A DNA stretch of 32,765 bases, from assembly GCF_021028975.2 (NCBI RefSeq), contig NC_059434.1:44888001-44920765 (forward strand). The letters run 5' to 3'. Shown in pieces: positions 27,701-30,202 of the stretch (the first letter of the stretch is position 1; each line of letters opens with the position of its first letter). The notes under the pieces were generated by a model. It was given only the letters and a program-made list of their open reading frames with translations. It was not told the origin of the DNA and did no database searches. The position numbers and the translations under genes are program-made. The DNA is from Sphaerodactylus townsendi (lineage: Eukaryota).

Positions 27701-30202
27701 AGAGCATGCAGCTGTGGAGCGGAAAAATAAGACATCCCCTGAAAATAAGACATAGCGCATCTTTGGGAGCAAAAATTAATATAAGACACTGTTTTATTTT
27801 CGGGAAAACAGGGTAACAATTCATTCATATCAATGAGAAGGTACCAGCATCATTGTTTGAGTGGACTATTAATTAATCATGATAATTTCAGGCTAAGTGA
27901 CCTGCCAAGAAACAACCCAGAATTTCCATGACTGGGGCATTTAAACCAGAGTGGAACTAGATTATATTTAAAATGTACATGTCTACTTAATCAATGTGTA
28001 CCCTGCCTCCCTCCCAAAGTTCATGATGAACTTCCAGTGTATATAGTGGCCTCAACTCTCAGTGTGTACAGTAGCCTCAATAAAGCCAGTGGAATGAGTC
28101 CATCGTAAATACTCTAATAATTCCATATAAAGTGTGGTTAAGAAGAACACTGCTTTAAGAGCTTTGCAGATCAAATTGCAGTCACTTAATTTTTACCCTA
28201 TCCATCTCTACTTAGGTGGACATTGATATTAAGGTACGTGCCTGCCATGGATCTTGTGCTCGAAGCGTTGAGTATCATGTGAATACAGAGAGCTATGATA
28301 ACATAAGGAAGCAACTTGTACAATCTAGTACCCTCGACTTTCAACCAGAATTTCAAAGTAATCCCCTGAGGGTCCTGAAAATGAGACCACTGAAAGACTC
28401 TACTGTTCCTGATCATTACAAATCTCTTCTCCTATCAGAAGAAGACACAAAAACACTTAATAAATTAAATGTGTATGAAGCAGTATTAGAAGGCCCAGGA
28501 TCACCATCTGGAGGTTCAGCCGTAGTCACCAAGCATGTGACCTCAGAAGCAAGTTCAAATCGACAGCCACATACCACCAAGATAGTCACTCCTGGTTATC
28601 TGGAAGGGCTACCTGAAGAAGCAGGAGGCACCATCAACATCAAAGTGAGCTCTACTGGTGGTGGAAGTGGTTTCTCTGATCTTGCCCATTTGCCAGAAGT
28701 AAAAGAGTTTTTTACCCCAGGTGATAGTAGCAAACTCCATGGAACAGGAACCAGCACCCACATTGTGCATATTGAAGGACATGACACTTTCTCTGACCTA
28801 GGAGAGGGAGAAGATGATGATTTCAGAGGGATTCACCTCTTGCCTGAATCCCATTCTAAAACAAGTGCCACTTCATCACATACTAGAACAGTTATAACCA
28901 GAACCAGTAGCTTGAACAAAGGGGGCTCCACTTTTGAAACCAAATCACTAAAAATTTCTTCACCATTTGAGGAGACACATGATTTGCAACATGATGAGAA
29001 TGAAGAGGATACACCTGATTTTCGGGCACGCAGCTTGGGAACAGGCAGAGTGAAGATGGGGGAAAGCTACATCGGGACAGGTATCCATCACTGAAAATAA
29101 CTATTGAGGGAGCAGGAGTGAGTTCAGTTTGCAACCAAACTGACACACTGGCTATACCATTACCTCAATCTATTTCATAGTCTAAAAAAAATACAATAAT
29201 GTGTCTGTTCCCATTTAGGAAAGATGGGAAAAATTATTTCTTACTGTTAATAACTGGATAGCAAGGCAGTTGCATAGAGAATGTAATAAAATAAAATGTC
29301 ACCTGGAATTAAAATGTGCATGTAAACAATCATTTCAGAAAAGCAAGTTTCAAGGTTTCTTTCCAGTGTAGCCCAAAATTAAATGTATCAGGTTACCTTC
29401 AGAATTATTACTGTTTGGATTCCTGTGAGCTTTTTTAAAAAAATAAAGCTTAACTGAAAACTTCTATCAACTAGATCAACTTTTTTTTTTAGACTGTGAG
29501 GATATCCAGCAAAAACACACTTCTGGTGCCAAAAGTGGCATTTTCAGAATCAAGCCAGCAGGATCCACTAAGGTTATTTCAGTTTATTGCGATCAAGAGA
29601 CCAGTTTGGGAGGATGGCTTCTGGTCCAACAGAGATTTGATGGGTCATTGAATTTTAACCGGACCTGGGAAGACTACAAGAAAGGTTTCGGCAGCGTGGA
29701 TGGCAAAGGGAATGGAGAGCTCTGGTTGGGCAATGAAAATCTCCATATACTGACCCAGAAGGACACTGTCCTTCGAGTGGAAGTAGAAGACTGGGAGGGC
29801 AATGAAGCTTATGCAGAATACTACATGCGTATAGGCTCTGAACTGGAAGGTTATAGCCTCAGTGTTTCCGATTATGAAGGCACAGCTGGAGATGCTCTGA
29901 TCATAGGCTCAGAGGAAGATGGCAGTGAATACACAGCTCATACCAACATGAGGTTCAGTACCTTTGACAGAGACAGTGATGAGTGGGAGGAAAACTGTGC
30001 CGAAGTGTACGGAGGAGGGTGGTGGTACAACAATTGCCAAGCTGCTAACCTTAATGGAATTTACTACTCAGGAGGTCAATATGACCCAAGGAACAACATT
30101 CCCTATGAGATTGAAAATGGTGTGGTGTGGGTCCCCTTCAAACCTTCAGATTACTCTCTCAAGGTTGCTAGAATGAAAATTAGGCCTGTAGAGACAGACT
30201 AG
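21659..30202 (+). CDS. FGA: Fibrinogen alpha chain. A-alpha: join(21659..21709,23815..23943,24759..24942,26597..26742,28216..29094), 462 aa. alpha-E: exon 5 ends at 29080 and joins 29493..30202, 694 aa
   Basis: Signal [17 protein letters not shown], fibrinopeptide A ...[31 protein letters not shown], alphaC region and the alpha-E FReD domain; all junctions GT-AG and in frame. Confidence 0.98.
23091..23272 (+). mobile_element. hAT-like MITE in FGA intron 1
   Basis: TIRs CAGAGGTGGGATCCAA / TTGGATCCCACCACTG; flanking direct repeat GTTGTAC on both sides. Confidence 0.85.
23532..23707. mobile_element. Old Harbinger-like MITE
   Basis: Inverted ends GGGTTAGATCCAGCCAGCTTT / AAAGCTGGCTGAATCCAGCCC, flanked by TAT on both sides. 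Confidence 0.7.
23815..23943 (+). CDS. FGA: FGA exon 2 ([43 protein letters not shown]): fibrinopeptide A and A-knob
   Basis: 129 nt, thrombin site R|GPR, acceptor ACAG, donor GTAAGC. Confidence 0.97.
24183..24267. repeat. Short degenerate palindromic interspersed repeat (old MITE)
   Basis: TGCAATCTTATGCACACTT...AAGTAGACATTCATAGGACTGAA imperfect hairpin; similar remnants near 6240-6300 and 7100-7160. Confidence 0.5.
24759..24942 (+). CDS. FGA: FGA exon 3 ([21 protein letters not shown]...NLLNEH)
   Basis: 184 nt, CPSGC ring, acceptor TTTCAG, donor GTAAGT. Confidence 0.97.
25551..25998 (+). mobile_element. Sauria-SINE/BovB-like 3' fragment split by a younger SINE insertion
   Basis: GGCAATGGCAAACCACC before, and TTGCCTTGAAAGCCCC...GTCATAAGTCAG...GACTTAACGGCAC after, the inserted SINE. 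Confidence 0.65.
25620..25924 (+). mobile_element. tRNA-derived squamate SINE (Squam3-like, gecko type) with (TTC)n tail
   Basis: TGGCGTAGGAGG A box, GGGTTTGATTCCC B box, body homologous to the 8092 copy. Confidence 0.85.
26339..26542. mobile_element. Degenerate hAT-like MITE remnant
   Basis: GCTTACCAACCTC...AGAGTTAGTCATCTTA resembles decayed TAGGGTTGCCA-type termini; no target duplication visible. Confidence 0.4.
26597..26742 (+). CDS. FGA: FGA exon 4 ([17 protein letters not shown]...EINRLE)
   Basis: 146 nt coiled coil, acceptor CTAG, donor GTAAGT. Confidence 0.96.
27595..27813. mobile_element. Tc1/mariner-pogo-like MITE
   Basis: TA on both flanks, CCCTG...CAGGG ends, internal repeats of CCTGAAAATAAGACATAG; left TIR partly deleted. 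Confidence 0.75.
28216..29094 (+). CDS. FGA: FGA exon 5 ([14 protein letters not shown]...alphaC region...SYIGT|GIHH*); internal donor after 29080 used for alpha-E
   Basis: Acceptor CTTAG at 28211-28215, 292-codon [16 protein letters not shown] and EDTPDF motifs of sauropsid alphaC, ACAG|GTATCC donor. Confidence 0.97.
   Translation: MDIDIKVRACHGSCARSVEYHVNTESYDNIRKQLVQSSTLDFQPEFQSNPLRVLKMRPLKDSTVPDHYKSLLLSEEDTKTLNKLNVYEAVLEGPGSPSGGSAVVTKHVTSEASSNRQPHTTKIVTPGYLEGLPEEAGGTINIKVSSTGGGSGFSDLAHLPEVKEFFTPGDSSKLHGTGTSTHIVHIEGHDTFSDLGEGEDDDFRGIHLLPESHSKTSATSSHTRTVITRTSSLNKGGSTFETKSLKISSPFEETHDLQHDENEEDTPDFRARSLGTGRVKMGESYIGTGIHH
29285..29295 (+). terminator. Overlapping AATAAA polyadenylation signals for the short A-alpha mRNA (inside intron 5)
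   Basis: AATAAAATAAA about 190 nt after the TGA at 29094 and before the exon 6 acceptor. Confidence 0.75.
29493..30202 (+). CDS. FGA: FGA exon 6, alpha-E C-terminal FReD globular domain ([16 protein letters not shown]...MKIRPVETD*)
   Basis: (T)10-AG acceptor, phase matches the 29080 donor, intact 236-aa domain with NRT sequon and [14 protein letters not shown] motif. Confidence 0.97.

Follow-up and report, generated by a model that had tools for sequence, protein, structure and literature searches.

A gecko fibrinogen alpha chain lacking the disulfide-closed hairpin of its alphaC region

The FGA gene and its shortened alphaC region

The stretch of Sphaerodactylus townsendi DNA analysed here (contig NC_059434.1; 32,765 nt in full, referred to below as the window) carries the fibrinogen genes FGG and FGA, both on the + strand with the FGG exons upstream of FGA. 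This report is concerned with FGA, and within it with the part of exon 5 that encodes the alphaC region of the fibrinogen alpha chain. Two Cys residues, spaced by about 27-33 residues and closing a beta-hairpin, are a canonical feature of alphaC and are not found in the gecko chain. The observation that carries this finding is the distance between two retained anchors: from the Lys of HTTK to the GG of GGTINIK there are 15 residues in 8/8 gecko rows of the alignment, as opposed to 55-76 residues in 69/69 non-gecko sauropsid rows (the junction of Gekko japonicus was seen separately and does not enter this count). The resulting gap amounts to 53-54 residues when measured against the skink, cordylid and tuatara chains; it starts after TPG and ends just beyond the second Cys. 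In human numbering, where the motif HTEKLVT occupies positions 410-416 and the Cys pair positions 442 and 472, the missing part corresponds to approximately residues 418-473.

An earlier note on this DNA, made from the letters alone, had drawn attention to some 278 Cys-free residues after the CHGSC ring in an intact frame. This description is accurate: exon 5 stays open over 292 codons, its only two Cys lie within CHGSC, and the last of them is followed by 278 Cys-free residues in the short isoform. However, because non-gecko alphaC is itself nearly free of Cys outside the hairpin pair (1 Cys in 20,065 residues of P0004-P0070), their absence alone is a weak signal, and it is the anchor-to-anchor gap, rather than the lack of Cys, that goes beyond chance. 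The four flanking sauropsid motifs said to survive were all located in exon 5 (28690-28716, 28789-28824, 28915-28953 and 29005-29022), and the proposal that a lineage-specific deletion had removed the hairpin agrees with the gap described above. The note had, however, taken a 26-residue Cys-free stretch as the position of the hairpin and placed the deletion within it. This stretch is the upstream linker together with the H-T-x-K-x-V-T motif, both of which are present in the hairpin-bearing skink, anguid, tuatara and human chains, and the deletion point lies just after it. Tandem repeats are indeed not found in exon 5, but this is no peculiarity of geckos, as the mammalian connector repeats are absent also from the aligned sauropsids and amphibians.

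Joining five FGA exons gives a 462-residue chain identical to P0128; with an internal exon 5 donor and exon 6, the product is an alphaE chain of 694 residues that equals P0312. Both records are labelled Sphaerodactylus townsendi. The features of the gene, in window coordinates, are as follows.

21659..21709, + strand: FGA exon 1 (coding part, signal peptide); the spliced exons reproduce P0312 and P0128 exactly
23815..23943, + strand: FGA exon 2 (fibrinopeptide A, GPR knob); spliced exons as in P0312 and P0128
24759..24942, + strand: FGA exon 3 (first disulfide ring CPSGC, coiled coil); spliced exons as in P0312 and P0128
26597..26742, + strand: FGA exon 4 (coiled coil); identity with P0312/P0128; its splice to exon 5 is seen in one contig and in 13 reads of RNA
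28216..29094, + strand: FGA exon 5, up to the stop codon of the 462-aa short isoform; the alphaE isoform (694 aa) uses an internal donor after 29080
28243..28257, + strand: second disulfide ring CHGSC; the short isoform has no Cys beyond the two in this ring
28519..28569, + strand: short alphaC connector; it aligns with the corresponding linker of skink, anguid and iguanian chains that have the hairpin
28570..28590, + strand: retained HTTKIVT motif, equivalent to human alpha 410-416, the start of the alphaC domain
28594..28599, + strand: deletion junction PG/YL at about 28596/28597; about 53-54 codons including both hairpin Cys are absent
28597..28716, + strand: retained post-hairpin segment ending in LPEVKEFFT; counterpart, by alignment position only, of the human linker and pseudohairpin (about 473-501)
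28789..29079, + strand: C-terminal part of alphaC, retained along with its conserved sauropsid motifs; its relative rate does not fall outside those of other clades
29493..30202, + strand: FGA exon 6 (alphaE fibrinogen-related domain), intact as judged from the genomic sequence and the identity with P0312

The chain has the GPR knob after fibrinopeptide A, the CPSGC and CxGSC rings and the coiled coil. Both P0128 and the gecko orthologues match PF08702 (Fib_alpha), the alphaE domain matches PF00147 (E 7.7e-71), and exon 6 appears intact, with GT/AG splice sites in the genomic sequence. A genome-wide search returned a single match to FGA exon 5. On balance, we take the gene to be a normal, expressed gecko fibrinogen alpha-chain gene from which some 53-54 hairpin codons are missing.

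Profile searches gave results of unequal value. PF12160 did not match gecko FGA; since Pfam also missed two of seven hairpin-bearing lizards, Hemicordylus and Pogona, the absence of this match was dropped as a stand-alone test. A profile built from 93 hairpins matched 0/9 geckos at E values up to 10.

Transcripts and distribution of the hairpin

In raw RNA of another gecko (run X21, about 6% of which was read), the GT..AG joint of exons 4 and 5 is present in 13 reads, and depth is continuous over exon 5 with six reads at position 28598. A spliced contig of 1521 nt from run X14 runs unbroken over 28214-29272, with 127 differences and a total of 18 gap letters, and a gapless 81-nt contig from run X16 (28559-28639) crosses the junction, which is thus bridged without insertion by contigs from two other organisms. 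RNA runs possibly derived from the source of the assembly itself (organism A) were not counted as independent, and the small-share runs X10-X13, X15 and X17-X20 were left out of account. When the six reading frames of the window were searched for a hairpin-like piece, none was found; the best of 1720 pieces, an 11-residue out-of-frame match in exon 5 with an E value of 0.26, was judged to be due to chance. Intron 4 contains a repeat resembling a miniature inverted-repeat transposable element at 27593-27814 (inverted ends TACCCTG ... CAGGGTA), which draws reads from other copies, and an additional exon in this intron was rejected as the source of the heavy RNA depth there, since the depth comes from the repeat.

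The same junction is found in 9/9 gecko sequences from separate records, namely Sphaerodactylus townsendi, Euleptes, Heteronotia, Paroedura, Gekko japonicus, G. kuhli, Eublepharis and two further gecko proteins. These sequences form one clade with 100/100 support, in which Eublepharis is sister to the remaining geckos. The two further proteins had been considered as possible pygopodoid samples, but this was rejected as they nest with gekkonids and sphaerodactylids in the tree. The sample covers the Eublepharidae, Sphaerodactylidae and Gekkonidae, and pygopodoid geckos and dibamids lie outside it.

The hairpin Cys were further scored in a census of 120 proteins (not species) drawn from two homology searches, one of which gave the best 120 of 210 matches. 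Within these best 120, three geckos lacked the pair and 116/117 non-gecko tetrapod proteins had both Cys, these coming from skink, cordylid, lacertid, anguid, varanid, iguanian, snake, turtle, crocodilian, bird, frog, caecilian, salamander and mammal. The sole non-gecko exception is the tuatara model P0059, in which the hairpin is present but its second Cys is replaced by Phe, leaving alphaC with one Cys; this single database model reflects either a free thiol or a sequence error. In a representative library, the hairpin profile also matched bichir, coelacanth, lungfish, four teleost chains, echidna and a marsupial (teleost models P0171 and P0175, which are fused to a tandem gene and have no alphaC part, were left out of the fish count). 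None of seven alpha-like chains of cartilaginous fish was matched at E values below 7, and the Cys pair is absent from them. Four of the shark and skate chains (P0239, P0261, P0270 and P0314) have a Cys-free TKT..SKDG or similar stretch, with a profile score that is not significant; this stretch may represent a hairpin precursor. The deletion is thus restricted to a lineage, as the earlier note had proposed, but this lineage is geckos broadly and not the one species. A loss common to all squamates, which the note had said would, if already documented, take away the novelty, was not found, the other lizards and snakes compared having kept the hairpin. Its description of a short alphaC fits geckos (190-201 residues) without being particular to them, since colubroid snakes have 173-192 residues and retain the hairpin.

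Other lineages have altered the region in different ways. In the colubroid snakes P0065, P0066, P0068-P0070 and P0166 the hairpin is kept and surrounding parts of alphaC, including the NKGGSTF stretch, are lost. The opposite of the gecko state is seen in the salamanders P0072 (Ambystoma) and P0076 (Pleurodeles), where the Cys-Cys hairpin is tandemly duplicated. In P0081 (Hymenochirus) and P0089 (Leptobrachium) the hairpin is followed within alphaC by an additional CxxC pair.

Taken together, we have next to no doubt that the hairpin deletion is real and gecko-wide. Two findings tell against it: run X22 contained no FGA reads, and searches of the species' own genome with the skink hairpin and PF12160, which found nothing, were made without a positive control. 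Genome searches for so short and divergent a segment are weak in any case, which would leave room for a hairpin hidden by assembly collapse or residing in an alternative exon or a second gene. Such an arrangement is hardly conceivable, as the junction is identical in nine gecko sequences and crossed by transcripts, exon 4 joins exon 5 directly in RNA, the genome has one exon 5 match, and the six frames of the window are devoid of a hairpin-like piece. Since the junction recurs in separate gecko records and in spanning transcripts of other geckos, assembly collapse, the other outcome against which the earlier note had guarded, does not explain it. A different question, separate from any functional reading, is whether the loss took one step or two. 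One MAFFT alignment set the gecko EGLPEE opposite the hairpin turn DGPREE, which counts against a single excision in that it implies two smaller deletions, one taking the first strand with the first Cys and the other taking the second strand with the second Cys, with the turn left behind as DGLPEE and the same functional outcome. For geckos with D in the (D/E)GLPEE segment, 4/6 positions of this pairing are identical. However, a 12-residue gecko segment aligns without gaps to the post-hairpin HLKGLVKEAGGT of Anolis with 8/12 identities, so that one gap suffices, and we consider a two-step loss improbable. In our reading, the deletion probably arose as a single event on the gecko stem.

Further observations concern other residues. 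At the position equivalent to human alpha 148 (end of exon 4, about 26730-26732), Asn is found in 7/7 full-length gecko chains, as compared with Lys in 115/121 others scored, and at human alpha 162 (28246-28248) the same seven chains have His where 117/121 others have Lys or Arg. In the neighbouring FGG gene, the last coding exon (12941-13135) extends the gamma chain to an RGD at its C terminus, with a single Gln before Lys-Gln.

Structure, constraint and proposed consequences for fibrin

AlphaFold models of the gecko chain and of a lizard control chain (P0132) were made with the same 77 aligned sequences. The control forms a two-stranded hairpin (strands 150-161 and 164-175; block predicted local distance difference test score, pLDDT, 90-93), which is its sole very confident element; in the gecko model no residue has a pLDDT of at least 90, and block means beyond residue 100 are 31-56. 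The remaining gecko alphaC is accordingly modelled without confident structure and is predicted to lack an ordered core, in keeping with the largely disordered alphaC suggested in the earlier note. The pseudohairpin region, retained in sequence by position, has low model confidence in gecko and control alike. At the sequence level, the skink hairpin matches the bovine alphaC nuclear magnetic resonance (NMR) chains 2JOR and 2BAF (E 3.9e-5 and 2.7e-4), and the gecko alphaC matches neither of these and only the later part of the chicken chain. A Foldseek comparison of the control model with the PDB returned nothing at E values up to 0.001; 2BAF was the top entry at an E value of 1.5, which we did not count as evidence.

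Tree lengths across 20 non-geckos were 3.6 for the hairpin, 3.6 for the coiled coil, 5.6 for the rest of alphaC and 8.3 for the connector, and the hairpin is therefore the slowest-evolving part of alphaC outside geckos. What remains of alphaC in geckos evolves at 3.0 times the rate of the conserved domains, compared with 1.9-5.0 in six other clades, and its ratio on the gecko stem is 2.6 against 2.1-4.0 on other stems; these are protein-level estimates from few taxa and have no error bars. Relaxed selection on the remaining alphaC, which we considered, is not seen on the protein trees. Since the most conserved piece of alphaC is gone and the remainder is not decaying faster, the loss is a modular one.

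The disulfide-closed hairpin has been described as the stable element in simulation work (bioRxiv 10.1101/452912). According to a review, alphaC domains associate with one another when their N-terminal subdomains swap beta-hairpins, a process that aids but is not required for lateral aggregation. The review adds that Cys442, when unpaired, binds albumin and perturbs the assembly of fibres, and that some carriers have thrombosis and others do not (PMC6462745). Recombinant alpha390 fibrinogen forms thinner fibres and denser, less stable clots with faster intrinsic lysis, although its protofibril growth is near normal (PMC8553339), and alphaC-truncated mice show reduced arterial thrombosis (PMC13277649).

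We propose that one in-frame deletion in the gecko ancestor excised the codons for the disulfide-closed hairpin. Hairpin-mediated formation of alphaC polymers would thereby have been lost and the association between alphaC regions weakened, such that gecko fibrin would consist of thinner, denser fibres while clotting still works. The phenotype would resemble that of the human alpha390 truncation in a milder form, because the C-terminal part of alphaC remains. By analogy with the human truncations, we slightly favour a measurable thinner-fibre effect in geckos. It also seems likely that the loss was tolerated rather than selected: with both Cys removed at once, no free thiol would be left to form adducts with albumin, and neither knob-hole polymerisation nor the rest of alphaC is affected. 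Haemostasis is reportedly preserved in alphaC-truncated mice.

Several considerations weigh against this proposal. The proposed fibre phenotype is an extrapolation from human truncations in which more than the hairpin is missing, in whole blood the greater density of alpha390 clots is less evident (PMC8553339), and the aggregation role of hairpin swapping has itself been termed a hypothesis (PMC3903590). Low AlphaFold confidence is not proof of disorder. If the lone Cys of the tuatara chain is real, a single Cys can be tolerated, which weakens the argument that both had to go together, and the alpha chains of cartilaginous fish indicate that fibrin can function lacking the pair.

This last point also bears on the idea that the loss is silent, that is, that the hairpin adds little in sauropsid fibrin, or that what remains of alphaC, along with other changes in geckos, compensates, and that gecko clots are ordinary. 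In addition to the fish chains, such an idea is consistent with the protofibril growth and clot contraction of alpha390, which are close to wild type (PMC8553339), with the human C472S variant (fibrinogen Sumida), which was without clinical signs (PMC6462745), and with the rapid clotting reported after gecko tail loss (PMC10493662). However, among non-geckos no other part of alphaC is as conserved as the hairpin, which is retained from bichir to human; snakes that shed neighbouring sequence keep it and two salamanders duplicate it, all of which points to purifying selection outside geckos. We therefore regard a silent loss as unlikely.

Alternatively, the loss may have been adaptive, selection having favoured a clot that is finer or easier to remodel, in connection with autotomy of the tail, the healing of wounds or a thrombin of higher activity. 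An identical junction fixed in 9/9 geckos would agree with this, as would the report that gecko thrombin clots human fibrinogen faster than human thrombin does (PMC10493662, in excerpts that do not extend to gecko fibrinogen) and the gecko-shared changes K148N and K/R162H (human numbering), which flank the tissue plasminogen activator (tPA)-binding stretch alpha 148-160. On the other hand, fixation along a long stem requires no selection, the stem ratio of the alphaC remainder is within the range of other stems, and K148N is present in a frog and a bichir too. Lacertids, skinks and anoles undergo tail autotomy and regeneration, yet all of them keep the hairpin. Adaptive loss seems improbable to us. 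A broader version, in which a distinct fibrin built in the absence of ordered alphaC polymers, with finer clots that are easier to remodel, co-evolved with a hyperactive thrombin and altered flanks of the tPA site as a gecko clotting module for autotomy and scar-free healing, with geckos as the sole bony vertebrates to have excised the hairpin, is likewise improbable. Our preferred reading remains a tolerated, modular loss, with an effect on the fibres that would be milder than that of alpha390.

Relation to known fibrinogens

The gecko gene is like other vertebrate FGA genes (PF08702, PF00147) in its six coding exons, knob, rings and coiled coil, in its short and alphaE isoforms and in its place downstream of FGG, and differs from them in having no alphaC intrachain Cys pair, hairpin or PF12160 match. 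With reference to the alphaC N-terminal subdomain (bovine 2JOR and 2BAF; human 392-503; PF12160), it keeps HTxKxVT and the segment aligned with the downstream linker and pseudohairpin, but is without the first, disulfide-closed hairpin. We found no earlier report of this loss in the literature, and a prior mention in an alphaC alignment figure is possible; the available excerpts of PMC7038749 and PMC4209140 do not mention it, and that of PMC6995014 concerns human clots. It is a real, gecko-wide and apparently unreported variant of a well-known protein, the sequences of which already stand in public annotation without comment. The junction also provides a clear shared character for gecko phylogeny.

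The alpha390 protein, Fga270 mice and the human variants Marburg, Milano III and Sumida are like the gecko chain in that the Cys442-Cys472 loop or its domain is lost, and clotting persists in them. However, these engineered and clinical losses are truncations or leave a free Cys442, whereas the gecko change is an internal, in-frame one that takes out both Cys and leaves the C-terminal alphaC in place, and it is fixed as the wild type. This difference matters because no other element of alphaC is as well ordered or as conserved as the hairpin and hairpin swapping is a proposed, unproven route to alphaC polymers and thick fibres, yet the human and mouse variants confound any test of it by cutting the whole domain or freeing a Cys. 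The gecko chain offers a clean internal removal, fixed across at least three gecko families, in animals that are kept in laboratories. If our reading is correct, geckos are a living knockout with which the hairpin-swapping model can be tested, and the role of the hairpin would be isolated by work on gecko plasma or on recombinant fibrinogen with a deletion like that of geckos. The significance is limited in that alphaC is known to vary and to be dispensable in part.

A natural parallel is found in the alpha-like chains of cartilaginous fish (Mobula, Narcine, Callorhinchus, Heptranchias and Leucoraja), which, like the gecko chain, have no Cys pair after the second ring region. These chains probably represent a primitive state or different paralogues, whereas the gecko chain shows a secondary loss nested within hairpin-bearing amniotes.

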